DNA of 64,000 nt from Dehalococcoidia bacterium (GCA_034422595.1 DAOUJO010000013.1:89723-153722); one strand, 5' to 3'; counted from the first letter of the stretch, positions 8,928 through 43,158 are shown. Notes: generated from the letters alone by a model not told the origin. A program made the numbers and translations.

Positions 8928-8951
8928 TAACTGAACTGGCCCCTCTTGCAA

Positions 8952-9851: not shown

Positions 9852-9910
9852 GCAACAGAGAGACGCCGCCACAAGAGGGGGTGCGTGCGCCGGCGACGGG
9901 AGACGTCGTC

Positions 9911-10744: not shown

Positions 10745-10751
10745 GGTACGC

Positions 10752-10828
10752 CGTCGTTCCTGCGCAGGCAGAGACCTCGCTCCTGCCTGTCATTCTGAGC
10801 GGAGCGCAGCGAAGTCGAGGAATCTCTC
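10752..10828. repeat. Two REP-like palindromic units between convergent genes
   Basis: CGTCGTTCCTGCGCAGGCAGAGACCTCGC (10752-10780; near copy at 60197-60225) and TGTCATTCTGAGCGGAGCGCAGCGAAGTCGAGGAATCTCTC (10788-10828; near copy at 39409-39449). Confidence 0.75.
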
Positions 10829-10847
10829 GGGGAACGCCCGGTAGGGC

Positions 10848-21091: not shown

Positions 21092-22264
21092 CTAGCGCGC
21101 GACTGCCTGCGCGTCCGGCGAGCGATTGGCCCCGATCTGGGCGATGCCCTCGTCGACGTTGGTGTCGATCATCGGGTGGTCCGGGTCGCGGAAGACGCCG
21201 ATGGGGTCCTCGCCGCGCTGCACCCGCTCGATCTGCTCCTTCATCACGCGCCGGATCAGCACGACGCCCCTGTCCGAGTACGAGAGGTGTTCGACGGTGC
21301 GGTCGGTGATGGGGCCCTGCGTCTCCCATGCCATCTGGTCCTGAGCGTTCACGTCGCGCAGGACGTACCGCGTGAAGGGGTGGTCCTTCTCCGGGTCTTC
21401 CTTGATGGGCGGGTCGAACTTGAACTCGGGATTGAACGCGTCCGGGTCCTCGCTGCCGTCCTCGTTCGGGTAGAAGTGCATGCGAAGGTGCCAGGTGTGG
21501 GTGTCGTCTATGGGCGTGCGGAACTGCGTGCTGGAGCCCTGGCGCAGGATGTTCGGCATGAGGACAGGGTGCTCGTCCACCATGCCGTTCTTGTAGGTGC
21601 GCTTCTTCATCATCCCGCCGTAGTCCGTCACGTAGAACTCGAAGTGCTCGACGTCGTCGGTGAAACCCCGCGTCGTGTTGACGGGCTGGCGGCCGCCTCC
21701 GGTGAACTCCTGGTGCAGCACCTGGAGGTGGGCCGGGTCCATCGAGTTCTCCATCGCCTGGAACCAGTTGCAGTTGAGCGGCGGGTGGATGCGCACCATG
21801 CGCTTGCCGTCCTTGCGGAACATCGTGTCGTAGGGCGCCATCGGCGGGGCAGGCAGGGGCCCCATGTAGGCGAAGACGAGGCCGATGTGCACCTGCACCT
21901 TGTAGGCGGTCTGCTTGACGGAGCGCATGATCGCCTCGTTCTTCTCCGGCGGGGTCTCGAGGATGTTGCCGTCGCAGTCGTACAGCCAGCCGTGGTAGGC
22001 GCAGGAGATGCCGCGCTCCTCGACCCGCCCGTAGACGAGCGACGCGCTGCGGTGCGCGCAGTGGTCGGCGAGGAGGCCGATGCGCCCGGACTTATCCTTG
22101 AAGAGGACGAGGTCCTCACACATGACGCGGACAGCCTTCGTGGGGCGCTCGTCCGTGAGGTCGGAGGCGATGGCGATGGGGTGCCAGTAGCGCCGGAGCA
22201 GTTCGCCCCCCGGCGTGCCGGGGCCGACTCTCGTAAGCAGGTCGTTCTCTTGCTGCGTCAGCAT
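21092..22264 (-). CDS. Rieske non-heme iron oxygenase alpha subunit (phthalate dioxygenase/LigX-like), copy 1
   Basis: CAH-x16-CAYH Rieske site; ENSMDPAHLQVLH; QD...WETQGPI...EHL..SDRG. Confidence 0.9.
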   Translation of the reverse strand: MLTQQENDLLTRVGPGTPGGELLRRYWHPIAIASDLTDERPTKAVRVMCEDLVLFKDKSGRIGLLADHCAHRSASLVYGRVEERGISCAYHGWLYDCDGNILETPPEKNEAIMRSVKQTAYKVQVHIGLVFAYMGPLPAPPMAPYDTMFRKDGKRMVRIHPPLNCNWFQAMENSMDPAHLQVLHQEFTGGGRQPVNTTRGFTDDVEHFEFYVTDYGGMMKKRTYKNGMVDEHPVLMPNILRQGSSTQFRTPIDDTHTWHLRMHFYPNEDGSEDPDAFNPEFKFDPPIKEDPEKDHPFTRYVLRDVNAQDQMAWETQGPITDRTVEHLSYSDRGVVLIRRVMKEQIERVQRGEDPIGVFRDPDHPMIDTNVDEGIAQIGANRSPDAQAVAR

Positions 22265-23275: not shown

Positions 23276-24544
23276 TCACTTCGACCTGCGGTGGGTCTCC
23301 GGCACGAACAGCCCGAGGATGATCGAGGAGAGCATCCCGGCGGCGCCGACGACCCCCAGCGCCAGGGTGAAGCCGGAGAGGGCCGTGCAGACCGAGACGA
23401 CCACGGGATTGGTCGTGAACCCCGCCTGCGTGACCGTACGCCCCACCGCGAAGAACCGTCCCCTGCCGCCGGGAGGCGCGAGGTCGGAGCCGACGACCTG
23501 CCACGAGCCGGTGAGCAGGCTGTTCATCGTCTGCATGACGACGAACCCGACGATGAACCAGCCGAACCCCATCCCGAAGAACGACGTTACCCCCAGGAAG
23601 GCCATCCCGGCGCCTAGCAGGAAGAGGCCGGGCACGATGGATATCTTCCGCCCGAAGCGGTCCATCAGGTACCCGGCCGCGAAGGTGAGCGGTATCCCCG
23701 CGCCCGCCATCAGGCTGCTGAGGATGCCGAGCGTCGCGGGGTCGGCCTCCTGGTAGGCGTAGGCGGCGTAGAGGAACACGGTGTTGCCCGCCACGATGCC
23801 GCCGCGCGCCGTCATGCCGAGCCACTGGGCGAGGAACATGACCGGTATCGGATGAGCGAGGAGCGCCTTCCACGAGAAGCTCTCCGTGGGGGAGGACGCC
23901 TCGCTCCGGCCTCCTCGGCGTCCGCCCTGAGGCATCGTCTCCCTGGCGAAGAAACCGGGGATCATGGCGACGACCGCGAACGCGCCCTGGATGATGAACG
24001 CGATCTCGAGACCGTACGTCACGGCCAGCAGCCCGCCCGCCAGCGGCCCTGCCAGCGTGCCGACGTGCTGGACGCCGAGGAGGCTCGTGATCATGCGCCC
24101 GCGTGAGCCGGAGCCGCTGGTGTCGGCGATCATGGTGAGCCGGCTGAGCGTCCACATCTGCGTGCCCCATCCGCCGATGAAGCGGTAGACGAGCAGCGCC
24201 TCGAAGGAGCCCGCCCAGGCGGTGAGGAAGGCGGAGAGGGCGGTGAGCGCCGGACCCAGGATGAGGATCCAACGCCGCCCGATCTTGTCGAGCAGGTAGC
24301 CGATGGGGATGCTGGCGGTGAGCCCGCCGAGCATGGTCGCCGCGAACACGAGGGCGGCCTGCTCCGGCCCTACGCCGAACGACAGTGCGAACTCCGGCAG
24401 GACGGGGACCGTCGCCCCCATGCCGAAACCGAGGGCGATCGCGGGCAGGTGGAGCTGGAAGAGCAGCCGCAGGAGGCGCTGCGGAGAGGCGCCCGCATCC
24501 GTTGCGGGCGTCGGAGCCTGGCTGGAGGGCGGCTGCGTCGTCAC
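23276..24544 (-). CDS. MFS transporter
   Basis: About 12 TM segments; motif A GYLLDKIGRR and GYLMDRFGRK. Confidence 0.88.
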   Translation of the reverse strand: MTTQPPSSQAPTPATDAGASPQRLLRLLFQLHLPAIALGFGMGATVPVLPEFALSFGVGPEQAALVFAATMLGGLTASIPIGYLLDKIGRRWILILGPALTALSAFLTAWAGSFEALLVYRFIGGWGTQMWTLSRLTMIADTSGSGSRGRMITSLLGVQHVGTLAGPLAGGLLAVTYGLEIAFIIQGAFAVVAMIPGFFARETMPQGGRRGGRSEASSPTESFSWKALLAHPIPVMFLAQWLGMTARGGIVAGNTVFLYAAYAYQEADPATLGILSSLMAGAGIPLTFAAGYLMDRFGRKISIVPGLFLLGAGMAFLGVTSFFGMGFGWFIVGFVVMQTMNSLLTGSWQVVGSDLAPPGGRGRFFAVGRTVTQAGFTTNPVVVSVCTALSGFTLALGVVGAAGMLSSIILGLFVPETHRRSK

Positions 24545-24561: not shown

Positions 24562-25149
24562 CTACATCGGCTCAATCACCCCGCAGGCTACCCGCTTGCC
24601 GGTGTCCGACTCCGTCTCTCCATAGGCGTCCGGGTTTTCGTGCACGATGATGGCGGAGCCGTCGTCATCGAATATGGAATGACTCAGGGCCGTGTCCAGT
24701 GTAATGCCAGCGGTAAAGAAGTCTGCGCGTGCGGAGCCGTCGGAGGCGGCGTAGATATTGGGCAGGTCGCCGCTGTGTCCCCCGGATTCGCCCCGCTTCC
24801 AGGCCGGGTGGACGAGACCATGTTCCGCATCGGTGGGGTTGAAGTGGTCTCCGGCGGCGCCAAAGTCAGGCGAACACGCGCCGATCTCGTGGATGATGAA
24901 CGCATGACCGCCCGGGGCCAATCCCTTCACATCGGCCATGATGAGGACCCCGGAGCTTGCTTGCAGGAATGTAACGGTCCCCATGGGATCACCGGACGGG
25001 GATTCCAGTACAGCCTCTGCAGTCAATCCCACTTCGGGTTCGGCCGCTTCACCTGAACCGGCAGTCAGCAAGACGAAGATGCCGATGACGATGACGGTTA
25101 CGATAACCGCAGGCACCACGAAAATAGCAAACTCCCATCGCACAGGCAT
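24562..25149 (-). CDS. Cu/Zn superoxide dismutase-family protein, membrane anchored, missing one Cu ligand
   Basis: HAFIIHE, GDHFNP, HSGDLPNI, IIVHENPD, KRVACGVI; N-terminal TM helix; GGAGG RBS before ATG 25149. Confidence 0.85.
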   Translation of the reverse strand: MPVRWEFAIFVVPAVIVTVIVIGIFVLLTAGSGEAAEPEVGLTAEAVLESPSGDPMGTVTFLQASSGVLIMADVKGLAPGGHAFIIHEIGACSPDFGAAGDHFNPTDAEHGLVHPAWKRGESGGHSGDLPNIYAASDGSARADFFTAGITLDTALSHSIFDDDGSAIIVHENPDAYGETESDTGKRVACGVIEPM

Positions 25150-25305
25150 TTTGAGAGCCACCTCCTTGGCTATCCCGCTGCGGGCCAATGTACAAGAAGA
25201 GGGGACTGTTGTAGGTGCCGGTGCAGTCTCAATTCAGGCACTGTTATTGGTACTACCCTGAACGTCATCGAACCGTTACGGAAGCAGTCTCGAACGTCAC
25301 CCCCT

Positions 25306-25381: not shown

Positions 25382-25639
25382 ATGAGGACGACGCTTACCC
25401 TGGATGATGATGTAGCGGACTCGCTCAAGGAGCAGGCGCGGCTGCTGAACATGCCGTTCAAGCGGATCGTGAACGACGCGCTGCGCCGGGGAATGTCGCC
25501 CGGAGTCCAGGAGGACCGTCCGGTGTTCCGGGTCACGCCGCTCGCCGGTGGGTTCCGGCCGGGGATCGACCTCCTCAAACTCAACCAGCTCAATGACGAA
25601 TTGGAGACGCAGTCTTTCGCCGGGCGGGACGCCGGATGA
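25382..25639 (+). CDS. VapB-like RHH antitoxin
   Basis: MRTTLTLDDDVA...FKRIVNDALRRG; ATGA overlap with a PIN toxin. Confidence 0.88.
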   Translation: MRTTLTLDDDVADSLKEQARLLNMPFKRIVNDALRRGMSPGVQEDRPVFRVTPLAGGFRPGIDLLKLNQLNDELETQSFAGRDAG

Positions 25640-26061
25640 TCGTCCCGGACGTGAACCTGCTCGTCTATGCATACAACGAGGCAGCGCCCTCCCACGAGCA
25701 GGCCCGCCGCTGGTGGGAAGGTCTGGTGAACGGCGCGGAGCGGGTAGGCGTCCCGTGGGTGGTGGCGGCGGGCTTCGTGCGGTTGCTGACCCACCCGAGC
25801 GTTCGTGAGCGGCCCGCAACGCCTATGCAGGCAGTGGACTATGTGGAAGAGTGGTTCCGCTTTCCCAACGTCGTGCCGCTGAATCCCGGCACGGAGCATC
25901 TCAGGCTGTTCCGCCGGGCCTTGGACGCTGCGGGTGTCGGTGCCAACCTGGTGACGGACGCTCATGTTGCTGCCCTGGCCATGGAGCACCAAGCGGAGGT
26001 CCACTCCAACGACGCCGACTTCGGCCGGTTCCCCGGCCTTCGTTGGCGTAACCCTCTCTGA
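25636..26061 (+). CDS. VapC-like PIN-domain toxin
   Basis: IVPDVNLLVYAY, NLVTDAHVAALAMEH, VHSNDADFGRFPGL. Confidence 0.92.
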   Translation: MIVPDVNLLVYAYNEAAPSHEQARRWWEGLVNGAERVGVPWVVAAGFVRLLTHPSVRERPATPMQAVDYVEEWFRFPNVVPLNPGTEHLRLFRRALDAAGVGANLVTDAHVAALAMEHQAEVHSNDADFGRFPGLRWRNPL

Positions 26062-26079: not shown

Positions 26080-26946
26080 TCAGCCGGTCTGTTCACGGTA
26101 CCAGCGGTAGACGTCGGTCGCCGTCATCGGTATCGCGCCGGGGGTGTTCATGATGAGCTCCAGCATCTTGACGAAGTAGGGGAAGCGGTGCGGCTGGCCC
26201 ACGATGAACGGGTGCAGGCCGATGGACATCACGCGCGCGGTCTCCGGCTCGTCGTTCAGGAGCGTCGTGAGGTGGTCGTGGACGCGCTCCAGCATCGACG
26301 GCCCCGGGTGGCCGAGCCGGATGTAGACGCCGATGTCGTTTAGTTCGAGCGAGTAGGGGACGGAGAAGAGCCTGCCGTTGGCGACGTTCAACTCGTAGGG
26401 CTGGTCGTCGTTGACCCAGTCGAGAACGAACTCGACGCCCGCGTCGACGAGCAGCTCCGGCGTGTCGGCGGACTCGCCGAGTCCGGGGCCGAGCCAGCCG
26501 AGAGGACGCCTGCCGCTGAACGCCTCGATGGTGTCGAGCGCGCGCTTGATCTCGGCTGCCTCGTCGTCCACGGCGGGCATCGGGCGCTGGTGGTAGCCGT
26601 GGGCGACGGCGTCCCATCCGGCGTCGAAGGCGGCACGGGCGACCTGCGGGTAGGCGTCGCAGACAGAGCCGTTGAGCGCCATCGTCATTGGGACGTGGCG
26701 GCTGCGCGTGGCGTCGAGTGTCCGCCAGAAGCCTGCGCGGAGGCCGTACTCGAACCACGAGAAGTTGGGCACGTCCGGCAGGCGCTCGCGCCCCGGCGGC
26801 TGCGGGCTGAGGGGGCGTCCGACGTGCTGGTCGAACTCGTTCTGCTCGACGTTCATCACGAGGATGACGGCGACGCGTGCGCCGCGCGGCAGGTGCAGCG
26901 CCGGCCTGTCGGGCAGTGGGACGAAGTCGGCTCTCGGGTTCGCCAT
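26080..26946 (-). CDS. Polysaccharide deacetylase family protein (PuuE-like)
   Basis: MNVE, SWFEYGLRAGFWR, HGYHQ, GWLGPG, DDQPY, IGLHPFIVGQPHR. Confidence 0.85.
   Translation of the reverse strand: MANPRADFVPLPDRPALHLPRGARVAVILVMNVEQNEFDQHVGRPLSPQPPGRERLPDVPNFSWFEYGLRAGFWRTLDATRSRHVPMTMALNGSVCDAYPQVARAAFDAGWDAVAHGYHQRPMPAVDDEAAEIKRALDTIEAFSGRRPLGWLGPGLGESADTPELLVDAGVEFVLDWVNDDQPYELNVANGRLFSVPYSLELNDIGVYIRLGHPGPSMLERVHDHLTTLLNDEPETARVMSIGLHPFIVGQPHRFPYFVKMLELIMNTPGAIPMTATDVYRWYREQTG
26127..26172. repeat. 46-bp direct repeat, copy 2 (inside the deacetylase gene)
   Basis: Matches 25306-25351 with three synonymous differences. Confidence 0.9.
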
Positions 26947-27028
26947 GGGGCTCCTCCGGCGGGGTGACGCCGCTCCCGATACTTTACAGGAGGGGCGCTG
27001 TCGACGGACAATGAGGGGACGCGCAGTG

Positions 27029-27105
27029 GGGCGGTTAGCTCAGTTGGTTAGAGCGCTTGCTTCACACGCAAGAGGTCACAGGTTCAAGTCCTGTATCGCC
27101 CACCA
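27029..27105 (+). tRNA. tRNA-Val (anticodon CAC)
   Basis: Cloverleaf with CTTGC-TTCACAC-GCAAG anticodon arm, GGTTCAAGTCC, encoded CCA. Confidence 0.95.
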
Positions 27106-27117
27106 CTGTGTGGACGT

Positions 27118-27203
27118 GCCGAGGTGGCGGAACGGCAGACGCGCTGTGTTCAGGGCGCAGTGTCCTTACGGGCGTGCGAGTTCAAATCTCGCCCTCGGCA
27201 CCA
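27118..27203 (+). tRNA. tRNA-Leu (anticodon CAG)
   Basis: CTGTG-TTCAGGG-CGCAG anticodon arm, long variable arm, encoded CCA. Confidence 0.95.
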
Positions 27204-27251
27204 CTAAGATTGTGACGCCTCCGGCCCCGCAACCGGCGGCACCTTGAGAGT

Positions 27252-27329
27252 GCGCTAGTAGCTCAGTCAGGATAGAGCGCATCCCTGCGGAGGATGAGGC
27301 CGTGGGTTCGAGTCCCGCCTAGCGCGCCA
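27252..27329 (+). tRNA. tRNA-Arg (anticodon GCG)
   Basis: GCGCTAG/CTAGCGC acceptor stem, CATCC-CTGCGGA-GGATG anticodon arm, GGTTCGAGTCC, encoded CCA. Confidence 0.93.
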
Positions 27330-27381
27330 CTCTTCTCTCCCCGTACACTGGCAGCCGGAACGCTCCGTGCTGTCCAGGACG

Positions 27382-27837
27382 ATGAACGACACCGCCCCTC
27401 TCCACCAGCGCTATCTGCCGTGGATGCTCGCGCTCGCGGCGCTGTTCGTGCTGCGCGTGCTGGCGCAGGCGGTGCAGTGGGCGGGACCCGTGCCGTTCCT
27501 CCCGCCGTTCGACACCTGGCAGGGCTCGGGGCTGCCATACCCCGCGCTGCTGGCCTCGCAGGCGGTCATCATCGCGCTGCTGGCGCGGGCGCTCGTAGTG
27601 GTGCGGTCGCAGTCGATCGCACCGGCGACGTGGAAGCACCGCGCGTGCTTCGTCCTCGGCGGGGCGTACTTCGCGGCGATGGCGTTCCGGCTCGTTGCGG
27701 GGCTCACGTTCCTCTCAGATACCGGTTGGTTCGCGGAGAGCCTCCCCGCGCTCTTCCACCTCGTGCTCGCGACGTTCGTCCTGCTGTTCGGGCACTACGT
27801 CTACAGCGCGGGCAGGGACGCCGGGGGCGCGGCGTGA
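27382..27837 (+). CDS. Hypothetical integral membrane protein (about 4 TM)
   Basis: Four hydrophobic segments; GTGA overlap with the next gene. Confidence 0.7.
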   Translation: MNDTAPLHQRYLPWMLALAALFVLRVLAQAVQWAGPVPFLPPFDTWQGSGLPYPALLASQAVIIALLARALVVVRSQSIAPATWKHRACFVLGGAYFAAMAFRLVAGLTFLSDTGWFAESLPALFHLVLATFVLLFGHYVYSAGRDAGGAA

Positions 27838-28727
27838 CCAACGCGATCGCGGACACGACGCTCGCCCGTCTCGCCGTCGTGGGCTCGTACCCGGGAGTGC
27901 TGGCGATCGGGTTCGCGGTCTACGCGGCGCTCGTGGGGATCGGCTGGCAGGTCACGGCTGCGTCGTGGGTCGCGGTCATCACCGGCGCGGCGCTCGTGAC
28001 GCTGCACGAGGCGCGGCTGCCGTACCGCAGAGAGTGGCATCCGACCGGGAGCGACGTCCGCGCGGACGCGATGTTCCTCGCGGCAGTGCAGGCCGTGCTG
28101 CCGCTGCTGTTCTCGGTGACGCTCGTGGTCGCGCTGGCGGACCTGTTCGATGCCCGCGGGCTGGCCGTCGAGGGGCTGTGGCCGCACGGCCTCCCCATCG
28201 CGGCACAGGTCGTGCTGATGATCGCGGCGGCGGACTTCCCGCGGTACTGGCTGCACCGGGCGTTCCACCGGTTCAGGCCCATGTGGCGACTGCACGCGGT
28301 GCATCACTCGCCGCACCGGCTCTACTGGCTGAACGTGGGGCGCTTCCACCCGATCGAGAAGGCGGTCCAGTACACGGTCGACACGCTGCCGTTCGCGCTG
28401 GCCGGCGTGCCACCGGAAGTGCTCGCGGCATACTTCGTCTTCTACGCGCTCAACGGCTTCTTCCAGCACTCCAACTGCCGCGTGCGTCTGGGGCCGCTCA
28501 ACTACCTGGTCAGCGGGCCGGAGCTGCACCGCTGGCACCACTCGGAGGTTACGGTGGAATCGGACAACAACTTCGGCAACAACCTCATCGTCTGGGACGT
28601 GCTCTTCGGCACGCGGTTCCTGCCTGCAGACCGCGAGGTAGGCATCCTGGGGCTGCACAACCGCGAGTACCCGCTGGGGTTCATCGCACAGATGCGGACG
28701 CCCTTCATCGCGGGGCTCGAACGATGA
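27834..28727 (+). CDS. Fatty-acid hydroxylase / sterol desaturase superfamily di-iron enzyme
   Basis: His boxes YWLHRAFH, LHAVHHS, LHRWHHS, plus NNFGNNLIVWDVLFGT; GTG start overlapping the upstream stop. Confidence 0.88.
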   Translation: MTNAIADTTLARLAVVGSYPGVLAIGFAVYAALVGIGWQVTAASWVAVITGAALVTLHEARLPYRREWHPTGSDVRADAMFLAAVQAVLPLLFSVTLVVALADLFDARGLAVEGLWPHGLPIAAQVVLMIAAADFPRYWLHRAFHRFRPMWRLHAVHHSPHRLYWLNVGRFHPIEKAVQYTVDTLPFALAGVPPEVLAAYFVFYALNGFFQHSNCRVRLGPLNYLVSGPELHRWHHSEVTVESDNNFGNNLIVWDVLFGTRFLPADREVGILGLHNREYPLGFIAQMRTPFIAGLER

Positions 28728-30361
28728 GCGGGCTGACCTACAAGCTGTTCAAGACGGCGCTGGGCGCGACGCAGGCGCGGCGCTACAAGCGGATGATGCG
28801 TGCAGCGGAGTCGCCCCGCGCTACCCAGGAGGCGGTGTTGCGCCACATCCTGTCTGCGAACGCGGATACGGAGTTCGGCAGGGAGCGCGGGCTGGGGAGC
28901 GTTGCGAGCGTGAGCGACTACCGGCAGGCGGTGCCGGTGCTCACGTACGAGGAGCTGCGCGAGGCGATCGAGCGGCAGGAGCTGACCGGCGAGCGTTGCC
29001 TGACGCAGGAGCAGCCGGTCTACTACCACCGCACGAGCGGGACGGTCGGCGCGCCGAAGAACATCCCGGTGACGGCGTCCGGCCTCGCGCAGATGAAGCG
29101 CGACCAGCGCCTCTCCGCCTACGTGTGGGCGCGGGACGCGGGCGTGCTGGAGGGCAAGGTGTTCGCCATCAGCGGCGCGGCGGTCGAAGGGCACATGGAC
29201 GGCGGCACGCCGTTCGGCTCAGCGTCCGGCCTGCTGTACCGTCACCAGTCGCGCTTCGTGCAGTCGCGGTACGTGCTGCCCGCCGAAGTGTCGGACATCG
29301 AGGACTACGACGCCCGCTACCTCGCGATGGCGGTATACGGCCTCGCCGAACCCGGCGTGACCGGCGCGGCGACGGCGAACCCATCGACGTTCCTCCGGCT
29401 GCTGTCGGTGGTGCACGACAACGCCGACGCCGTGCTCGGCTCCATCGCCTCGGGGCATCTGCCGGGCGAAGCGTCCGGCCTGCCGCTGCCGCCCCGGCCG
29501 GAGCGCGCGCGGGAGCTGGAGCGGCGCCTCAGCGCGGCAGGACGGCTGACGTACGCCGACATCTGGCCGGGCCTGCGCGGCATCGTCACGTGGACGGGCG
29601 GGAGCTGCGGCATCGCGCTCGGCAACCTGTCGCCGCTGTTGCCGGACGGCGTGCAGATCATCGAGTGGGGGTACTCGTCGAGCGAGTTCCGGGGGACGCT
29701 GAACATCAACGTGCGGCGGAACGCCTGCCTGCCAACGTTCCTCAACACCTTCTTCGAGTTCGCGGAGCGCGACGCGTGGGAGGCGGACACGGGCGAGTTC
29801 CTCTGCCTGGACGAGCTGGAAGACGGGCGCGAGTACTACGTGTTCGTCACGACCGGCGACGGCCTCTACCGGTACGACATCAACGACATCGTGCGGGTGA
29901 ACGGCCGGGTAGGGAACACGCCCACGCTGGGCTTCGTGCAGAAGGGCAAGGGCGTCACGAACATCACGGGCGAGAAGGTGACGGAGGCGCAGGTGCTGGA
30001 CGCGGTCACGTCGGCGTTCGCCCCCACCGGAGCGCCGCCGGAGTTCTTCATCATGCTCGCGGACGAGGCGGCGTCCGGCTACACGCTCTACGTGGAGACT
30101 CCGGCGTCCGCGTTCGCCGGTGGCGGGGCAGCCGACGAGATCGACCGGCTGCTCAGCGTGTCGAACATCGAGTACGAGGCCAAGCGCAAGAGCGGACGGC
30201 TCGCTCCACTGCGCGTGCGGCTGCTGCCGGACGGCGCGGGCGGACAGTACCGCGAGAGTTGCGTGGCGTCTGGGCAGCGGGACGCGCAGTTCAAGTACCT
30301 GCACCTGCAGTATGCGCGCGACTCCGCTTTCGATTTCGATGCCATCGCCGTTGCGGAGTGA
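28724..30361 (+). CDS. GH3-family acyl-adenylate/amido ligase
   Basis: NADTEFGR, RTSGTVGAPKNIP, GYSSSE, GLYRYDINDIV, GEKVTE, EYEAKRKSGRL; ATGA coupling. Confidence 0.88.
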   Translation: MSGLTYKLFKTALGATQARRYKRMMRAAESPRATQEAVLRHILSANADTEFGRERGLGSVASVSDYRQAVPVLTYEELREAIERQELTGERCLTQEQPVYYHRTSGTVGAPKNIPVTASGLAQMKRDQRLSAYVWARDAGVLEGKVFAISGAAVEGHMDGGTPFGSASGLLYRHQSRFVQSRYVLPAEVSDIEDYDARYLAMAVYGLAEPGVTGAATANPSTFLRLLSVVHDNADAVLGSIASGHLPGEASGLPLPPRPERARELERRLSAAGRLTYADIWPGLRGIVTWTGGSCGIALGNLSPLLPDGVQIIEWGYSSSEFRGTLNINVRRNACLPTFLNTFFEFAERDAWEADTGEFLCLDELEDGREYYVFVTTGDGLYRYDINDIVRVNGRVGNTPTLGFVQKGKGVTNITGEKVTEAQVLDAVTSAFAPTGAPPEFFIMLADEAASGYTLYVETPASAFAGGGAADEIDRLLSVSNIEYEAKRKSGRLAPLRVRLLPDGAGGQYRESCVASGQRDAQFKYLHLQYARDSAFDFDAIAVAE

Positions 30362-31466
30362 GCCGTTGCGCATCGAGCGTCTGGACGTCTACAGCTTCCC
30401 GGTGCCGTTCAAGGCCGTTTTCCGCCACGCGTCGGCGAGCCGCTCCCGCGCCGAGAACCTCATCGTCGCTGCGCGCTCCTCCGATGGCATCATCGGCTAC
30501 GGCGAGGGCTGCCCTCGCGACTACGTGACGGGCGAGACGGTGGAAGGCGGGGCCGCGTTCATCCGTCGCCACGCGCAGGCCATCGCGGACGAGGTGACCG
30601 ACGGCGTGAGCCTGCGGGCGTGGGCGGACGCGCACCGGAGCGAGATCGACGAGCATCCGGCGGCGTTCTGCGCCATCGAGCTCGCAATGCTGGACCTGCT
30701 TGGCAAGGCGGCGGGCGCGCCGGTCGAGGACGTCGTGGGCGTGCCGCGCCTCGACGGCGGCTTCACGTACTCCGCCGTGCTCGGCGATTCGCCGTATCTC
30801 GTGTACCGCCTGCAGCTCTTCCGCTACCGCAGGAAGGGCTTCACCGACTTCAAGGTGAAGGTCTCCGGCGACCCCGGACGCGACCGGCGCAAGCTGCGCG
30901 CGCTGGGGAAGAAGCGACTGCGGGTGCGGCTCGACGCGAACAACCTCTGGGCTGATGCGGACGATTGCATCGCGCACCTCAACGCGCTGGGCGGCAGCGT
31001 GTACGCGGTCGAGGAGCCGCTGACGGCGGGCGACCTCGCGGGTTTCGAGCGCGTGAGCGAGGAGTGCGGCGTCCGCATCATCCTGGACGAGAGCCTGCTG
31101 CGCGCCTCGCAGCTGGACGGGTTGGGAAGCCCGGAGCGGTGGATCGTGAACGTGCGCGTCTCCAAGATGGGCGGCATCGGCAGGTCGCTGGAGGTCGTAG
31201 AGCGCGCCGCGAGCCTGGGGATGGGCGTCATCGTCGGGGCGCAGGTCGGCGAGACGAGCATCCTCACGCGGGCGGGGCTGACGGTGATGCAGGCGGCGCG
31301 TCCGGTGCTCGCGGCGTCGGAGGGCGCGTTCGGGACGCACCTGCTGCGCGAGGACCTGACCGTGGAGAGCCTCATGTTCGGCGACGGCGGCGTGCTGACG
31401 ATACGGGACCCCGCCGCGCTGGGTCTGGGACTCGCCGTGCGGGAGGGGATGCTGGTCCCGGCGTAG
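30339..31466 (+). CDS. Enolase-superfamily MLE-subgroup enzyme (dipeptide epimerase / N-acylamino acid racemase-like); start approximate
   Basis: GYGEGCPR, FKVK, metal ligands in RLDAN / VEEP / ILDES, VSKMGG, GAQVGETS. Confidence 0.82.
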   Translation: MPSPLRSEPLRIERLDVYSFPVPFKAVFRHASASRSRAENLIVAARSSDGIIGYGEGCPRDYVTGETVEGGAAFIRRHAQAIADEVTDGVSLRAWADAHRSEIDEHPAAFCAIELAMLDLLGKAAGAPVEDVVGVPRLDGGFTYSAVLGDSPYLVYRLQLFRYRRKGFTDFKVKVSGDPGRDRRKLRALGKKRLRVRLDANNLWADADDCIAHLNALGGSVYAVEEPLTAGDLAGFERVSEECGVRIILDESLLRASQLDGLGSPERWIVNVRVSKMGGIGRSLEVVERAASLGMGVIVGAQVGETSILTRAGLTVMQAARPVLAASEGAFGTHLLREDLTVESLMFGDGGVLTIRDPAALGLGLAVREGMLVPA

Positions 31467-31534
31467 CGCCCGCCGCGCCGGTTTCGTGCTATCGTAGCCG
31501 TGCCGTCGGCCAGCGGCGGCAGGAGGCATGGGTC

Positions 31535-32830
31535 ATGCTCAGCGCAGAGGACAACGCTCTGCTCACCGCAACGTCGCGCGGGACGGCGATGGGCGATCTG
31601 CTGCGCCGGTTCTGGGTGCCGTTCCTCCTCTCCGACGAACTGCCGAAGCCTGACTGCCCGCCGGTGCGCACGCGCCTGATGAACGAGGCGCTCGTCGCGT
31701 TCCGCGACACGTCGGGACGCGTGGGGCTGCTGGCGGAGCGCTGCCCGCACCGTCGCGCGAGCCTCTTCTTCGGACGGAACGAGGAGGACGGCCTGCGCTG
31801 CATCTACCACGGCTGGAAGTTCGACGTGGACGGCCAGTGCGTGGACATGCCCTCCGAGCCTGCGACGAGCAACTACAGAGACAAGGTGCGCCAGACCGCC
31901 TACCCCACGGTCGAGGCAGGAGGCGTCGTCTGGGCGTACCTCGGCCCGGCGGAGCAGACGCCCGCGATGCCGGACTTCTCGTGGCTGCACCTGCCGCTGT
32001 CGCACGTCCACGTCACGAAGCGGCTGGAGCGCACGAACTGGGTGCAGGGACTCGAGGGCGGCATCGACTCGGCGCACTCCAACTTCCTGCACGCGACGGT
32101 GGACGGGTTCCGCCGGACGCCCGCGTGGCTGGAGCGCGCCCAGGCCGCGACCGACCTCCGCGCCCGCTACCACGCGCTCGACCGCTCGCCCGTCTTCCTG
32201 CCGGAGGACACCGACTACGGGCTGCGCGTCGGGGCGCAGCGGGACATCGGCGAGGGCACGCACTACTGGCGCTTCACCCACTGGATGATGCCGTTCTACA
32301 ACCTCTTCAAGCAGGGCTCGAAGAAGCCGGGCGCCAACAGCCAGGGCATCGCGTGGACGCCGATAGACGACCACAGCTGCTGGACGATCGTGGTGACGTG
32401 GAACGACGAGCGCCCGCTGAGCGGCGAGGACATCGAGGCGGCGGAGGAGTTCGCGGGCCCCGCTCTGCCCGGCTCGTTCCTGCCCGTACGCAACATGGAG
32501 AACGACTACATGATGGACCGGGAGTTGCAGGCGAACGGGACGTTCTCCGGCATCCCCGGCACGCAGGCGCAGGACATGGCGGTGCAGGAGAGCATGGGCT
32601 CCATCGTGGCGCGGTTCGAGGAGCACCTCGGTACGAGCGACGCCGCGATCATAGCGATGCGGCGCAGGCTGCTCCGGCAGGCGCGCGCCCTCGCGGACGG
32701 CGCGGACGCTCCGCTGGCGTCGCGCGACGGCTCCGTGTACCGCGTACGGTTCGGGGAGACGCTCGTCGAGGAAGGCGAGGAGCTCGACGCGGCAGCGCGC
32801 GAGCGCCTGTGCGCTCCTGCGGCATCGTAG
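31535..32830 (+). CDS. Rieske non-heme iron oxygenase alpha subunit (LigX/phthalate dioxygenase-like), copy 2
   Basis: CPH-x16-CIYH; EGGIDSAHSNFLH; QDMAVQESMGSI...EHLGTSD. Confidence 0.9.
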   Translation: MLSAEDNALLTATSRGTAMGDLLRRFWVPFLLSDELPKPDCPPVRTRLMNEALVAFRDTSGRVGLLAERCPHRRASLFFGRNEEDGLRCIYHGWKFDVDGQCVDMPSEPATSNYRDKVRQTAYPTVEAGGVVWAYLGPAEQTPAMPDFSWLHLPLSHVHVTKRLERTNWVQGLEGGIDSAHSNFLHATVDGFRRTPAWLERAQAATDLRARYHALDRSPVFLPEDTDYGLRVGAQRDIGEGTHYWRFTHWMMPFYNLFKQGSKKPGANSQGIAWTPIDDHSCWTIVVTWNDERPLSGEDIEAAEEFAGPALPGSFLPVRNMENDYMMDRELQANGTFSGIPGTQAQDMAVQESMGSIVARFEEHLGTSDAAIIAMRRRLLRQARALADGADAPLASRDGSVYRVRFGETLVEEGEELDAAARERLCAPAAS

Positions 32831-32866
32831 GCTGGTTGGGTACGTACATCACCGAGGAGGGACGAC

Positions 32867-33634
32867 ATGGCGCGGCTGACCATCGCTGACCTGCAACAGA
32901 TGAAGAACGACGGGAAGAAGATCGCGGCGGGCGTCTGCTACGACGTGCAGATGACGCGCATCCTGGAGCGCGCGGGCGTCGACCTGCTCTCGGTGGGCGA
33001 CAGCGTCAGCAGGACATTCCTAGGTATGGAGAGCGACGACGAGTTCTCGCTCGAGGCGATGCTGCTGTTCGGCAAAGCGGTGAGCCGCGTCGCGGAGCGG
33101 GCCGTCATCAACGTGGACATGCCGACGGTCGTCTGCAACGCAGGGCCGAAGGCGGTGGAAGAGGCGACACGCCGCATCAAGGAGGAGACGGGCGCGGACA
33201 TGACGAAGGTCGACATCCGCACCCAGGAGGAGGAGCTGTTCGACGACGTGCTCGCGGTCATCGGAGCAGGGCTTCCGGTCTACCCGCAGATTGGCTTCCA
33301 GGTGTTCGAGCCGCGTCACGGCGGCCCGGAGGCGCACGAGCACATCATGAAGTGGGCGAACGCGGTGCAGGACGCCGGTGCGGTGATGATCGACCTCACG
33401 AACGTGACGCTCGACATCTACGCCGACGTGGCGAAGGCGATGCGCATCCCGGTCATCGGCGGACAGACGGGGCCGGAGTCGGACGGGCGCATCTATGTGA
33501 GCTACTCGCTGACGGGCTACCGCGCCGACACGATCGACCGCACAGAGGAGCCGCCGACCGCGGCGCGCTACATCTACGACATCGTGGAGAAGGCGATAGC
33601 GAGCGTCCACGACGCCACGTGGGTCGCGCCCTAG
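32867..33634 (+). CDS. PanB-like (ketopantoate hydroxymethyltransferase fold) protein with divergent active site
   Basis: CYD, VGDS, VDMP, TKVD, PVIG, DGRIYV align to PanB, but the H136 and E181 equivalents are changed. Confidence 0.75.
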   Translation: MARLTIADLQQMKNDGKKIAAGVCYDVQMTRILERAGVDLLSVGDSVSRTFLGMESDDEFSLEAMLLFGKAVSRVAERAVINVDMPTVVCNAGPKAVEEATRRIKEETGADMTKVDIRTQEEELFDDVLAVIGAGLPVYPQIGFQVFEPRHGGPEAHEHIMKWANAVQDAGAVMIDLTNVTLDIYADVAKAMRIPVIGGQTGPESDGRIYVSYSLTGYRADTIDRTEEPPTAARYIYDIVEKAIASVHDATWVAP

Positions 33635-33639
33635 CCCGC

Positions 33640-34137
33640 GTGTCCCTCGTCAGGCACTTCACCTCCACCGGGTTCGTCGTTCAGGACGGCGCGACGCTGC
33701 TGCACCGGCACCCCAAGCTGGACATGTGGCTCCCTCCGGGCGGCCACGTCGAGGAGAACGAGGACCCGGTTCAGGCCGTGCTGCGCGAGGTCGAGGAGGA
33801 GACCGGCATCGTGGCCGAGGTGGTCCCGACCGGAGGAGTCGACGGCGCTCCGGCCATCCCCGTTCAGATATCGCCTCCCATCACCATCCTTATCGCGGAC
33901 ATCGACGACCCGGTGGACGGCTTCCACCAGCATATCGACTTCATCTACGTCTGCCGCCCCGCCACCCCCGTGACCGGTGTGCCGGACGGCTGGCTCTGGG
34001 TTACTGAGCAGGAGCTCGCTTCGGGTGCACCCTTGAGCAGCCCCGGCGTGGTCCCCGAACCTCCACCGGACAACGTGCGTGCTCAGGGAGCGCAAGCGTT
34101 CCGCGTGGTCCGGGACTACGAACGCGCCCGGGCGTAG
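33640..34137 (+). CDS. NUDIX hydrolase
   Basis: WLPPGGHVEENEDPVQAVLREVEEETG Nudix box; HQHIDFIY. Confidence 0.9.
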   Translation: MSLVRHFTSTGFVVQDGATLLHRHPKLDMWLPPGGHVEENEDPVQAVLREVEEETGIVAEVVPTGGVDGAPAIPVQISPPITILIADIDDPVDGFHQHIDFIYVCRPATPVTGVPDGWLWVTEQELASGAPLSSPGVVPEPPPDNVRAQGAQAFRVVRDYERARA

Positions 34138-34161: not shown

Positions 34162-35400
34162 CTACGGCCCGCTGATCTTCAGCGTATGCCCGGTGGGGAC
34201 CTCGCCGGTGTACGCCCAGTCCGGCATGTCGAACTCGACCCCCTCGACGGCGAGCATGCGCTTGTACTCCTCGCGGATGTAGGGGTCCTCTTCCTGGTAG
34301 GTGATGCTGCGTCCGCCCATCTCGATGGGCAGGTTGCCGGAGACCTCGGTCTCGCCCTGTCGCCGCAACTGTATGCCGACGCCCTGCGGGATGCCGCCGA
34401 AGACGAGGAGCCGCAGCGGTTGCCTGCCTGTGCTGTGGTGCATGTGGAACCAGCCCGTGCCGCCGGGGTTGTTCACCACCATGCCGCCGGGGCGGTAGTC
34501 CTGCCGCATGACCGACTCGCCGTTGCCGGTCTCCCAAGGGCGGATCGTCGCCGACTGCGGCCACGCGAGTGTGTAGCCGGAGCCGTTGATGCAGATGAGC
34601 ACGACGGAGCCGGGGCCGGGCGGGTGGTGCGCCATCGAGTAGCGTCCGCTGTGGTGTTCGCCGACGAACGTGTAGAAGCGCCCGTTCGCCATCTGCGGGA
34701 TGACGCGCCGGTAGCCGGGCGAGCGCTGGTTGTCCAGCGGCAGCTCGCACGTTGCCATGTCCGGGATGAGGTTGGTGACGCGCATGGCGCGCTCGTGCAG
34801 CGGGTCCGCGACGATGCTGTCCTGCGGGCGGAAGTAGTCGTCGGAGTCGTCGAAGCGGTCGTTGAACGCGAAGTCGCTGTCGAAGATGAACTGCTGGTTG
34901 TCGAACAGGTTGAAGATGGGCGGGGCGGTCGTGCCGCCGATGAGGACGACGGGGCCGGAGCTCGCGTTGATGATGCGGTGATTCGTGTTGACCGGTATCG
35001 CGAAAAGGCTGCCGGCCTGCCACTCGAACGTGTGCTTGCGGTCGCTGCCTTCCCGCCAGACCTCCGTCGCGCCCCGGCCCTCGAAGACGTAGTAGACCTC
35101 CTCGTAGAGGTGGCGCTCGACGGTCGACTCGGAGCGCGGCGGCAGCTCCCAGGCGTACATGCCGAGCTTGCCGTCCGTACCGTCGAGCTGGATGAAGGAG
35201 CCGAGCCCGCCCATGCGCTTCCACGGCGATTTGGGTATCTCGCGGATGTCGTACATGCCGAGGCCGCGGTAGATGGGGAGGCCCTGCGCCTCCATGAAGT
35301 GGTCGTAGGGCGTCCGCGCCACCTTCCACGTGCCGAGTCCCGCACGCTCCTTCTCGCCCGATGGCTCGACGAATGCCTTGGCGTCGTTCACCTGCGTCAT
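34162..35400 (-). CDS. Bicupin protein (gentisate dioxygenase-like fold)
   Basis: ERHLYEEVYYVFEGRG...HRIIN cupin 1; YSMAHH...GSGY...WFHMHHSTG cupin 2. Confidence 0.75.
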   Translation of the reverse strand: MTQVNDAKAFVEPSGEKERAGLGTWKVARTPYDHFMEAQGLPIYRGLGMYDIREIPKSPWKRMGGLGSFIQLDGTDGKLGMYAWELPPRSESTVERHLYEEVYYVFEGRGATEVWREGSDRKHTFEWQAGSLFAIPVNTNHRIINASSGPVVLIGGTTAPPIFNLFDNQQFIFDSDFAFNDRFDDSDDYFRPQDSIVADPLHERAMRVTNLIPDMATCELPLDNQRSPGYRRVIPQMANGRFYTFVGEHHSGRYSMAHHPPGPGSVVLICINGSGYTLAWPQSATIRPWETGNGESVMRQDYRPGGMVVNNPGGTGWFHMHHSTGRQPLRLLVFGGIPQGVGIQLRRQGETEVSGNLPIEMGGRSITYQEEDPYIREEYKRMLAVEGVEFDMPDWAYTGEVPTGHTLKISGP

Positions 35401-35490: not shown

Positions 35491-37095
35491 CTACGGCTGC
35501 CCTTCCTCAGGTGTGGCGGGATCGCCGGAGCGGCGCGGGCGCCGGATGTTGTAGCGAGCGCTCACGCGTTTGCTCAGCCTGATGGCGACCCAGCCGAGCA
35601 CGATGAGCGGGATGAAGACGACGACCCAGATGAGGATGTAGGAGAGCGCGATGCCGACCGCCGAGAGCGCGCGAACGGCATCCTTGAACGTACTCTCGAC
35701 CTCCCATCCGCCGATGAGGAAGCCTTCCGATTCGGTCACGAACACCTCGAAGGAGCCGGAGGACGATATACGCCCTGCGTCACTCATCGCGCTAACGGTC
35801 AACCGCACGTTGTAGGGGTCCGGCCGGTAGTCGATATAGGCGTGGGTGGCCTCGACGCGGGTGCCCTCATCTATCTCGCCGCTGACACTGGGCGAGCCGT
35901 CGCCGAAGTCCCACTGGTACTCGTAGTCCCAGAGCTCCTCCGGCGCCGTGAACGACGCGGTGTACCGGACCTCTTCTCCCTCTTCGACCGTGCGCCACTC
36001 GCCCGCGAAGACCTCGATGGACGGCACTTCGGTGACGGTTGCGAGCAGCGAGTCCGTGCCCTCAGCGATGCCGCCCTCGCCCCTGCCGGTGATCTCGACG
36101 GTCACGATGTAGGGCGAGTCGTCGCCGTCCGGGTAGACGTGGTTCACGGTCGCGGTGACGCGGCGTCCGTCCGTGGTTGGCGCAGTGGTGTGACCTGCGA
36201 CTGTGGAGCCGTCGCCGAAGTCCCAGGTGAACGTGAATTCGTCGACGCCGCCCGGCGGCGTGAACGTCGCGCGGAAGCGCGCCGGCTGCCCGACCCTGAA
36301 CGCCTCATCCGGCCCGGCGTCCACGACCATGTCGAGCGGCGCGACGGTGAGACTGACCTCGATGAGCGAGAAGGCGGCGACCTGCTCGAAGTAGTTGAGC
36401 CGTCCCTGCATCTCCTCGATCTGCAACTGGATGGAGGAGAGCTCGCTCTGGACCTTGAGCGCCTCTTCCACGTTCTGCGTCTGCTCGAGGAAGCCCAGGA
36501 GACGGGCCTGGGTCGCCTGCAGGCCGGAGAGGCGCGACTGCGTGTCAACGTACTGGTCGGTCACGTCCTCGCTCGTGACGGCGCGAGAGGTCGTTTCCCG
36601 CGCAGTGGCCTCGATCATGTCGAAGGCCCGGTCGAGCGACTCCGCGGGCACGCGGATGGCGACTGCGCCGGTGTGGCGTGACACTCGGTCGGAGCTGACG
36701 AGCCACCCGCCGAGCGATGCGGCGATGCCCGCGATGCGGTCGACCGTACCGGCGACGTCGTCGACGATGAGCGACATCCGCGCCGTGTGCACGATGATGC
36801 GGCTCTGCGTGAGAGGGGAGGAGCGGGGGTTGCCGGAGCCGTCGGCTGAATCCTCAGCCTCCTCCATCATCGCGGCGGGCACGGGCGTAGGCTGTGCCGG
36901 CTGCGCCTTCTCCAGCATCGCGCCGTCGGAGGCAGCCTCATCGCCGACAGAGAAATCCATCCGTCCCCCGCCTGCGGCCCCGGCCGGCCCCTGGGCCCCG
37001 GTGGGCACGAGCGAGTCTTCGCCACCGCATGCTGCAGTCAGCAGCAGCGCCACCGGGACCAGCGCTGCCAGGAACATCCTGATGATCTTCGTCAA
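35491..37095 (-). CDS. DUF4349-domain lipoprotein with two PKD domains and a C-terminal TM helix
   Basis: Lipobox LTAAC; IRVPA...SEDVTDQYVD...IEEMQGRLNY; two WDFGDG PKD motifs; TTG start with RBS. Confidence 0.8.
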   Translation of the reverse strand: MTKIIRMFLAALVPVALLLTAACGGEDSLVPTGAQGPAGAAGGGRMDFSVGDEAASDGAMLEKAQPAQPTPVPAAMMEEAEDSADGSGNPRSSPLTQSRIIVHTARMSLIVDDVAGTVDRIAGIAASLGGWLVSSDRVSRHTGAVAIRVPAESLDRAFDMIEATARETTSRAVTSEDVTDQYVDTQSRLSGLQATQARLLGFLEQTQNVEEALKVQSELSSIQLQIEEMQGRLNYFEQVAAFSLIEVSLTVAPLDMVVDAGPDEAFRVGQPARFRATFTPPGGVDEFTFTWDFGDGSTVAGHTTAPTTDGRRVTATVNHVYPDGDDSPYIVTVEITGRGEGGIAEGTDSLLATVTEVPSIEVFAGEWRTVEEGEEVRYTASFTAPEELWDYEYQWDFGDGSPSVSGEIDEGTRVEATHAYIDYRPDPYNVRLTVSAMSDAGRISSSGSFEVFVTESEGFLIGGWEVESTFKDAVRALSAVGIALSYILIWVVVFIPLIVLGWVAIRLSKRVSARYNIRRPRRSGDPATPEEGQP

Positions 37096-37277
37096 CTGCC
37101 ACCTTCTCCCGCTGCACTGTTGGCGCATCATAGGCGCATGCACCGGTGCTGGCCACTCTCGTTACGGACGCTCACACCTTGCCGTGTTCATGGAGTAGTA
37201 TGCGCTCACCGCGCGAAACGTTCCCTCAGGACGACGCGCGGCGACACCTCCCGCATCGCACAGGAGCAACGGACCAG

Positions 37278-39539: not shown

Positions 39540-39926
39540 CTACGCCGCCTCTTTCACCGTGACGGCCACCACTCCTTGCGTCTCCCGCGTCTTGTAGAGA
39601 TCGGGCCGCATCGTCGGCGGGAAAGCGGTACGCACCCGCTGCGTGTCCACCGCCGTCACGACGAATGGCCTCCGCCACTTGAAGAGTACGCCGGACTCGA
39701 AGGCGCGCCCATCCCCTCCGGCGAGTCGCTCGTGCATACCGTCTCTCGCGGCATTCGTCAGGCTTGCTCCGATGCTGCTGAACGCCGCGCCCAGCCGCGC
39801 CAGCTGCCCGCACGTATGGCGCGCGTCCGGCTCCGCCAGTAGCACGGCCAGCCTCTCCAGCGCGTCGCCGGGGAGGAACGCTCCCAGCTCCGCCAGCGGG
39901 TTGATGTTCGGGTTCGCAACTGCCAT
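39540..39926 (-). CDS. Hypothetical protein
   Basis: 128-aa ORF with GGAG RBS; no family confidently recognised. Confidence 0.55.
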   Translation of the reverse strand: MAVANPNINPLAELGAFLPGDALERLAVLLAEPDARHTCGQLARLGAAFSSIGASLTNAARDGMHERLAGGDGRAFESGVLFKWRRPFVVTAVDTQRVRTAFPPTMRPDLYKTRETQGVVAVTVKEAA

Positions 39927-40086
39927 TTCGTTCTCCTCCCTGCCCCTGTCGGGCTATGCTCACTCTATGGCAGGCAGGGCCGTACCCCGCAATGCCCTCG
40001 TGTCACACTCCGCTTCGCGGCTCTGTCATGCTGAGCGCGGCCGCGTATACTGCGCGCAACGCGCAGCTCGACGCAAAGGGGGAGGC

Positions 40087-43063: not shown

Positions 43064-43158
43064 CCTGCCACCTCCTGCTGCGCCGGGATTGTAGCGCACC
43101 ACGGCAACGCGCAGCGGACGTATAATGCGCCTCAATACGGGGCGACAGGAGGTGGGCG

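Follow-up and report, generated by a model that had tools for sequence, protein, structure and literature searches.

A conserved four-gene module of a GH3-type ligase, an OlsE-like hydroxylase, an Arg-type enolase-superfamily protein and a four-helix membrane protein as a candidate lipoamino-acid pathway in diverse bacteria

Four co-directional genes lying directly 3′ of a tRNA-Val/Leu/Arg cluster were analysed in a 64,000-nucleotide stretch of DNA from a Dehalococcoidia bacterium (GCA_034422595.1, DAOUJO010000013.1:89723-153722), which is referred to here as the window and has a G+C content of 67.5%. Its nearest relatives are metagenome-assembled genomes of the SAR202/Dehalococcoidia group, with identities of up to 97% for the GH3 protein. 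In the order of transcription, the genes encode a four-transmembrane (4-TM) protein (memb), a putative fatty-acid hydroxylase (FAH), a GH3-type ligase (GH3) and an Arg-type enolase-superfamily protein of the MLE subgroup (MLE-R) (Table 1). A first-pass annotation of this DNA had placed four such genes after the tRNA cluster and proposed that they form an N-acyl-amino-acid or aminolipid pathway; the gene set was confirmed with coordinates, Pfam matches and ARAGORN.

The genes are closely coupled. The stop codon of memb overlaps the GTG start of FAH in the sequence GTGA (27834-27837), and the stop codon of FAH overlaps the ATG start of GH3 in the sequence ATGA (28724-28727), as the first-pass annotation had read them, and both overlaps agree with independently made ENA gene calls for the same contig. 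A third overlap, which had been placed near 30340-30361, is probably not real. The ATG at 30339, with which MLE-R would overlap GH3 by 23 nt, is not the start conserved among homologues. Instead, TTG 30366 encodes the residue at which the homologues begin (alignment consensus start MRIxRLEV), a GGAG lies 7 nt upstream of this codon, and the ENA call on the same contig starts there as well, 4 nt past the GH3 stop; public gene calls give a protein of 366 aa. The third junction is probably a 4-nt gap rather than an overlap, and the cluster is tightly packed even so. A promoter scan returned a single sigma70-like site, at 26983-27012 in front of tRNA-Val, and nothing resembling a terminator was found from 26900 to 33700, both results being weakly informative in this organism.

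To investigate the distribution of the module, one-genome-per-species contigs were scanned in three independent ways, with a GH3 query, with a profile of the 4-TM protein and with a degenerate DNA pattern for the Arg-containing β6 motif of MLE-R. The DNA pattern gave 120 hits, 11 of which (Sorangium included) were discarded as chance matches after a tblastn check. As a result, 196 distinct loci with an Arg-type MLE gene were obtained after duplicate removal. FAH, GH3 and MLE-R were found together in 161 of them, 117 of which also carried memb, and the loci beyond the 161 were mostly cut by the end of the fetched region or of the contig. The order FAH-GH3-MLE was invariable, and all genes were on the same strand with one exception. 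The memb gene preceded FAH in 120 loci and followed MLE in 38 (counts that still include duplicates). Only two loci with readable flanks (L182 and L208) contained an Arg-type MLE gene without GH3, and their neighbouring genes were uninformative. Clustering of all open reading frames (ORFs) in the flanks revealed no fifth conserved gene.

The carriers include Dehalococcoidia (SAR202), Alpha-, Beta-, Gamma- and Deltaproteobacteria, Acidimicrobiia, Binatia, Nitrospira, Nitrospinaceae, Methylomirabilia, Acidobacteriota, Verrucomicrobiota, Bacteroidota and Armatimonadota. Almost all are metagenome-assembled genomes, and the identity of the homologues to the window proteins falls to 31-50%. The first 80 loci had suggested a trait specific to sponge symbionts, which was rejected because the quartet also occurs in freshwater, soil and groundwater lineages. 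Adjacency of the module to tRNA genes was kept in several SAR202 sublineages (L001-L010, L017 and L019) and was absent in the non-SAR202 loci scanned. A tRNA-linked genomic island was likewise rejected, since this adjacency is kept only within SAR202 sublineages. In a neighbor-joining (NJ) tree of the concatenated trio, which carries no bootstrap support, the phyla were interleaved and three gammaproteobacterial loci were located within the Dehalococcoidia clade, a pattern that suggests horizontal transfer of the module between phyla. No paper on this gene combination was found in the literature searched.

All fetched loci were further scanned for gene fusions, defined as adjacent genes in the same frame without an intervening stop codon. 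Fusions of memb with FAH were found in 10 loci, fusions of FAH with GH3 in 25 (approximately 23 of them distinct) and a fusion of GH3 with MLE in one. Examples from the ORF lists are the 449-aa memb::FAH protein of L150, the 858-aa FAH::GH3 protein of L128 and the 928-aa GH3::MLE protein of L135. Continuous memb::FA_hydroxylase fusions were also recovered by the memb profile search among mutually distant representatives (P0416, P0467, P0482 and P0497). Every adjacent pair is therefore fused somewhere, which argues strongly for joint action of the four proteins. The fusions tether the soluble ligase to a membrane enzyme and show that this ATP-dependent protein works at the membrane beside the di-iron enzyme. 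The alternative that the genes are chance neighbours, or share transcription but no common function, is refuted by these comparative data: about 160 distinct loci, spread over at least a dozen major lineages, keep this gene order, far beyond what chance would give, and fusions link all adjacent pairs. The first-pass annotation had named a failure of the genes to co-occur elsewhere as the outcome that would speak against its proposal; the neighbourhood analysis decisively showed the opposite, with the quartet conserved across many phyla and neighbouring genes fused in some lineages.

The FAH protein matched PF04116 with 105.7 bits against a Pfam cut-off of 31 (E = 3.2e-30), and its four His motifs (HRAFH, HAVHH, QHSN and HRWHH) were invariant in 78 homologues. 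It is thus predicted to be a membrane di-iron oxygenase of the fatty-acid hydroxylase / sterol desaturase superfamily that resembles OlsE. Among 18,950 NCBIfam models, the only one matched was OlsE (NF052566), over model positions 37-284 of 293 and thus nearly full length, and the same single match was obtained for 12 of 12 diverse members of the family, with a best E-value of 1.9e-58. The score of the window protein was 168 bits against a cut-off of 475, which places FAH in a paralogous clade of OlsE rather than among its equivalogs. The reaction of OlsE is a hydroxylation of the ornithine head group at C4 (PMC12971839). The enzymes of Rhizobium tropici and Agrobacterium belong to the same di-iron superfamily, the His boxes of which are intact in FAH, but FAH differs from them in being always linked to GH3, with fusions in many lineages, and to a dedicated 4-TM protein. 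To our knowledge, no linkage of OlsE itself to a GH3 or 4-TM gene has been described. As a separate observation, the hydroxylase appears to be largely deleted or degraded in one Dehalococcoidia genome (CBDFLP010000018; L042/L098), where about 50 FAH residues were detectable between memb and GH3 and the other three genes were kept.

The ligase showed the complete three-domain architecture of its family, with scores of 165.4, 63.9 and 48.4 bits for PF03321, PF23571 and PF23572 (cut-off 23.6 each). The nucleotide motifs in the window protein are TSGTVGAPKNIP, YSSSE and YRYDIND, and the corresponding patterns TSGT..K..P, YxxSE and YRYxxxD were conserved in 81 homologues, with invariant core residues. 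GH3 is accordingly assigned, from its domains and motifs, as a predicted ATP-dependent acyl-acid amido synthetase of the GH3 family. The catalytic motifs had been described as intact in all three enzymes, which proved correct for the hydroxylase and the ligase. The nearest sequence in the PDB was AtGH3.15 (7e-22), and matches to plant GH3 structures ranged from 7e-22 to 8e-12. Plant GH3 enzymes such as AtGH3.15, JAR1 and PBS3 share the domain architecture and motifs of the window protein. They are soluble, stand-alone enzymes that act on hormone substrates, whereas the window-type ligase is operon-linked and fused to a membrane oxygenase in about 23 loci.

Within NCBIfam, the closest relation of the ligase was again an ornithine-lipid enzyme. 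The only model matched of the same 18,950 was OlsH (NF052613). The score was 85 bits, where the cut-off is 620, and the alignment scored best over an N-terminal stretch (residues 16-233). All 12 diverse GH3 members tested matched OlsH only (best E-value 1.2e-30). At this score the window ligase is not an OlsH equivalog. OlsH, reported in 2025, is a GH3-type enzyme that forms N-acyl-ornithine from a free fatty acid with ATP and Mg2+, and in Singulisphaera acidiphila it is encoded in one operon with the α/β-hydrolase OlsI and the methyltransferase OlsG (PMC12493201). The authors of that study noted that GH3 homologues whose specificity is unknown run into the thousands in bacteria (PMC12493201). 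The remark in the first-pass annotation that bacterial GH3 enzymes are little characterised is therefore outdated, since N-acylation of ornithine by OlsH has been shown experimentally (PMC12493201), and the type of pathway is not wholly new. Both systems have a bacterial GH3 protein with three domains and conserved nucleotide motifs at the centre of an operon, and OlsH demonstrates that such an enzyme can link a free fatty acid to an amino acid without CoA or acyl carrier protein (ACP). The partners differ: those in the window are a di-iron hydroxylase, an enolase-superfamily protein and a 4-TM protein, whereas OlsH is accompanied by OlsI, an α/β-hydrolase O-acyltransferase, in all planctomycete examples. 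Neither OlsI nor OlsG was conserved with the module in the cassette loci examined. Judged by the curated cut-offs, the window enzymes belong to neither the OlsH nor the OlsE family, although the module resembles these enzymes of ornithine-lipid synthesis.

The fourth protein fits its proposed role least well. The AlphaFold (AF2) model of MLE-R (pLDDT 91) comprises a capping domain and a TIM barrel, the fold of the MLE subgroup. The top Foldseek matches were a dipeptide epimerase (3jva) and an N-succinyl-Arg/Lys racemase (2p88), with TM-scores of about 0.85 at approximately 24% identity; the scores to 3jva, 2p88 and MLE structures were 0.83-0.86, and 1jpm also gave about 0.85. The K-x-K motif at β2 and the Mg2+ ligands D/E/D at the ends of β3, β4 and β5 are present, and this KKDED pattern was found in 134 of 135 loci, with D in place of E in the remaining one. 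The position of the catalytic Lys at β6, in contrast, was occupied by Arg in all 135 loci, so that the extended pattern K,K,D,E,D,R,K is identical in all but the same deviating locus. This Arg lies in the motif N-x-R-x-S-K-M-G-G, aligns opposite K264 of 3jva, and is placed by the AF2 model right after the strand 259-263. On the basis of a constant offset of the ligands (E215/D240 in 3jva, E219/D244 in YkfB), we take K264 of 3jva to be equivalent to K268 of Bacillus subtilis YkfB. The acid/base Lys pairs of MLE-subgroup enzymes are K162/K268 in YkfB and K163/K263 in the Amycolatopsis N-succinylamino-acid racemase (NSAR), and every characterised racemase or epimerase of the subgroup that we know of uses the second Lys.

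The annotated claim that the catalytic motifs are intact consequently fails for MLE-R, which keeps K-x-K and D/E/D and lacks the β6 Lys. The proposed epimerisation to a D-amino-acid lipoamino acid by the standard mechanism is unsupported for the same reason, which makes the label 'epimerase' questionable. A canonical N-acyl-amino-acid racemase or dipeptide epimerase with such a product would be in keeping with the fold, with the nearest structural neighbours, which are dipeptide epimerases and N-succinylamino-acid racemases, and with the intact K-x-K motif and metal ligands. Against it stand the substitution of the acid/base Lys throughout the family and the distance from all relevant NCBIfam models. 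No cut-off was reached against the models for dipeptide epimerase, N-succinylamino-acid racemase, muconate cycloisomerase or OSBS, the best scores being 79 against 335 bits (TIGR02534), 78 against 400 (DgcA), 70 against 201 (menC) and 42 against 500 (Ala-Glu epimerase). Among the invariant MLE-R residues after β8, no DxD motif like that of dipeptide epimerases was evident, a point that was not analysed more deeply. A canonical racemase is therefore regarded as quite improbable. The MLE-subgroup racemases and epimerases share the fold, K-x-K and D/E/D ligands with MLE-R and differ from it in the β6 residue. They act on N-acylated amino acids with a free α-carboxylate, and the structural neighbours of MLE-R work on the α-carbon of the class of compounds that the GH3 ligase would produce.

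The memb protein matched no model of Pfam or NCBIfam. Its AF2 model (pLDDT 91) consists of four long helices, and the best Foldseek match in the PDB reached only E = 0.99. A word search returned 281 homologues, and a profile search of 1.84 billion representative proteins matched 1063 representative clusters; in both sets the proteins are unnamed or called 'hypothetical protein'. The invariant polar residues include R25, Q29, Q32, W46, Y53, R103 and H126. A cytochrome-like His pair was considered and rejected, as one His only is invariant. The protein is best viewed as a member of an undescribed family of predicted four-helix membrane proteins that is the putative partner of the FAH hydroxylase. 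The first-pass annotation had suggested that the 4-TM protein acts with the enzymes at the membrane, and this part of it gains support from the memb::FAH fusions. In one SAR202 subclade (L093 and L095, from the same genomes as L014 and L043), memb is unlinked from the trio and flanked by genes for a formate-dehydrogenase-like molybdopterin oxidoreductase and for a class II aldolase, and in two Betaproteobacteria (L149 and L152) it lies 3′ of UbiD. Neither context provided a functional clue.

Taken together, the quartet may constitute one membrane-associated module that makes and tailors an amide-linked conjugate of an amino acid with a fatty-acyl or other lipophilic acyl group, of the lyso-aminolipid type, a reading to which we assign a probability of roughly one half. 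In the first step, GH3 would adenylate a free carboxylic acid with ATP and transfer it to the α-amino group of an amino acid, as expected from the chemistry of the family and from OlsH. The OlsE-like oxygenase would hydroxylate, or possibly desaturate, the conjugate in the membrane; its family and its fusions were observed directly, and its reaction is extrapolated from them. The 4-TM protein would serve as an integral membrane partner or subunit of the oxygenase. In the third step, which may come before or after the oxidation, MLE-R would bind the free α-carboxylate of the N-acyl amino acid via Mg2+, and a lysine of K-x-K would remove the α-proton. Because the Lys of the opposite face is an invariant Arg, a one-base reaction is more likely than a two-lysine racemisation. 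Candidates are β-elimination of an introduced hydroxyl, which would give an N-acyl dehydroamino acid, and a non-canonical epimerisation with an unusual base. Arg is the proton-abstracting base in some metal-assisted β-eliminations, such as those of pectate lyases. Any specific version of this step is much less likely than the general model. The product would most likely be a modified fatty-acid–amino-acid lipid that has so far not been described. Of the original aminolipid proposal, the general idea is thus strengthened, as the only curated families matched by the hydroxylase and the ligase are OlsE and OlsH, and its epimerase step is weakened.

Several observations weigh against this model. 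The OlsH and OlsE scores lie so far below their cut-offs that substrate identity cannot be transferred to the window proteins. The lack of an O-acyltransferase (OlsI- or OlsA-like) conserved with the module means that a full acyloxyacyl aminolipid is not predicted. The Arg substitution leaves the third step without a characterised precedent, and catabolic oxygenases flank the module in the window. Two accessory genes or gene sets also occur inside the cluster. A complete PotABCD-type ATP-binding cassette (ABC) importer separates memb from FAH in eight loci of one sponge-associated gammaproteobacterial clade (L112, at 6539-10835; L064/L131, L109, L111, L114, L115 and L121). Its components are two permeases, an SBP_bac_8 binding protein and a TOBE-domain ATPase of the PotA family, which scored 361 with the potA subfamily model (cut-off 355.6). 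A CocE/NonD α/β-hydrolase is found within the cluster in six loci (L134, L138, L139 and three others) and additionally in L278, the carriers being a few Betaproteobacteria and relatives. In L278 (7001-9178), this hydrolase (Peptidase_S15 + PepX_C) is fused to the 4-TM protein. The memb profile hit P0489 is a protein of this kind, and its contig reads [memb::CocE/NonD]-[FAH::GH3, 855 aa]-[MLE]. The hydrolase may be an analogue of OlsI that works as an acyltransferase or an esterase.

These insertions would fit a module that processes or detoxifies an imported acid or amine, with conjugation by GH3 as in the inactivation of plant hormones, followed by oxidation and rearrangement that would lead to its catabolism or inactivation. 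The flanks in the window are also rich in Rieske/LigXa, LigB and amidohydrolase genes, as is typical of SAR202 catabolism. However, only a few clades have the importer or the hydrolase, in contrast to the universal presence of the four core genes, and the catabolic flanks are not conserved beyond close SAR202 relatives. An outlay of ATP for amide formation would be unusual in catabolism, and the FAH::GH3 and memb::FAH fusions indicate a lipophilic substrate resident in the membrane. Since the accessory features are so restricted, processing of an imported compound is considered unlikely.

An equally unlikely alternative is that the module supplies a small diffusible signal or secondary metabolite, such as an N-acyl dehydroamino acid or a lactone-type compound, rather than a bulk membrane lipid. 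With no conserved O-acyltransferase, an N-acyl amino acid with one chain would be expected as the product, and accessory traits typically show such mixing of phyla as is seen in the cassette tree. Known bacterial metabolites include N-acyl amino acids with a 2,3-dehydro amino-acid core, made by unrelated enzymes (PMC12479983). The NAS/NasY pathway to N-acyl-dehydrotyrosines resembles the quartet in its likely product class, long-chain N-acyl amino acids of which some are modified at the α/β positions, but its NasY acyltransferase, adenylyltransferase/cyclase and nitroreductase are unrelated to the four proteins, so that the likeness is an analogy only (PMC12479983). The carriers, on the other hand, are very diverse free-living lineages with small genomes, and the fixed set of four genes, with no variability in transporters, regulators or tailoring enzymes, is more like a housekeeping function of the envelope. 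The nearest families are likewise enzymes of membrane lipids. Returning to the lyso-aminolipid-type model, a bolder form of it would hold that the quartet makes an unrecognised and widespread class of lipoamino acids, found in nitrite oxidisers, methylotrophs, SAR202 and sponge symbionts, by means of a four-protein membrane complex, in which the Arg-type enolase-superfamily protein catalyses on a lipid substrate a reaction new to its superfamily (β-elimination to an N-acyl dehydroamino acid or a non-canonical epimerisation with Arg) and the 4-TM protein is a new obligatory partner of the oxygenase; this form is offered tentatively and is less probable than not.

The genes around the module were annotated as well (Table 1). 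The Rieske/LigXa-type oxygenase, PanB-like protein, NUDIX protein and cupin that follow it adjoin the cassette only in L001-L012 and L016, and partly in L017-L020 and L042, and are absent elsewhere; they were rejected as members of the pathway because they are neighbours in close SAR202 relatives only. The PanB-like protein scored 124 against 272 bits and 108 against 208 bits with respect to the PanB cut-offs and is kept together with the Rieske, NUDIX and cupin genes, so that it is probably not a ketopantoate hydroxymethyltransferase. The window contains three Rieske/LigXa_C oxygenase paralogues, a LigB-type ring-cleavage dioxygenase and an Amidohydro_2 protein, an oxygenase-rich set that is the typical catabolic repertoire of SAR202. 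Approximately 1 kb upstream of the tRNA cluster, an 85-aa ORF without a Pfam match overlaps by 4 nt the start of a gene for a 141-aa PIN-domain protein, and the pair looks like a toxin-antitoxin system of the VapBC type. A Polysacc_deac_1 gene is kept upstream of the tRNA cluster in close relatives; its best NCBIfam match was the N-terminal domain of PuuE allantoinase, well below the cut-off (108 against 425 bits). The gene directly upstream of an MFS transporter encodes a Cu/Zn superoxide dismutase whose N-terminal segment is hydrophobic, and a 550-aa protein with DUF4349 and two PKD domains is probably secreted or exposed at the surface. In the closest relative, L001, an extra tRNA-Arg(gcg) gene lies on the opposite strand (4892-4963, -), about 1.3 kb upstream of the Val-Leu-Arg cluster; ARAGORN called no such copy in the window.

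Table 1 Coordinates of the module genes and of neighbouring features in the window
Feature	Position	Strand	Description
memb	27382-27837	+	151 aa; 4-TM; alternative GTG start 27367
FAH	27834-28727	+	297 aa; PF04116 FA_hydroxylase
GH3	28724-30361	+	545 aa; PF03321 + PF23571 (GH3_M) + PF23572 (GH3_C)
MLE-R	30366-31466	+	366 aa; MR_MLE_N + MR_MLE_C; alternative ATG start 30339
tRNA-Val(cac), tRNA-Leu(cag), tRNA-Arg(gcg)	27029-27329	+	ARAGORN; immediately upstream; context, outside module
Rieske/LigXa-type oxygenase	31535-32830	+	Pfam; lineage-specific neighbour; one of three Rieske/LigXa_C paralogues
PanB-like protein (Pantoate_transf)	32867-33634	+	Pfam; lineage-specific neighbour
NUDIX protein	33640-34137	+	Pfam; lineage-specific neighbour
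Cupin	34162-35400	-	Pfam; lineage-specific neighbour
Rieske/LigXa_C oxygenase paralogue	21092-22264	-	
Rieske/LigXa_C oxygenase paralogue	41813-43369	-	
MFS transporter	23276-24544	-	
Cu/Zn superoxide dismutase	24562-25188	-	Hydrophobic N-terminal segment
85-aa ORF and PIN-domain protein	25382-26061	+	VapBC-like pair
Polysacc_deac_1 protein	26080-26946	-	
DUF4349/PKD protein	35491-37143	-	550 aa
Amidohydro_2 protein	37146-38303	+	
LigB-type ring-cleavage dioxygenase	39643-41070	+	

The support for a common module from gene order and fusions is unusually strong and extends over many phyla. With thousands of GH3 enzymes in bacteria and a function assigned for OlsH alone, the module would provide a second function, in a different architecture. 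Two uncharacterised families are defined by this analysis, a 4-TM partner of a di-iron oxygenase and an MLE-subgroup clade in which Arg replaces the catalytic Lys, and the latter offers enolase-superfamily enzymology a clear target. Among the carriers are Nitrospira, Nitrotoga, Nitrospinaceae, methylotrophs, SAR202 and sponge symbionts, organisms that matter in the nitrogen and carbon cycles and about whose envelope lipids little is known. Should the product be a membrane lipid or a signal, it may influence the stress tolerance, phosphorus economy or host interaction of these bacteria, as ornithine lipids do.

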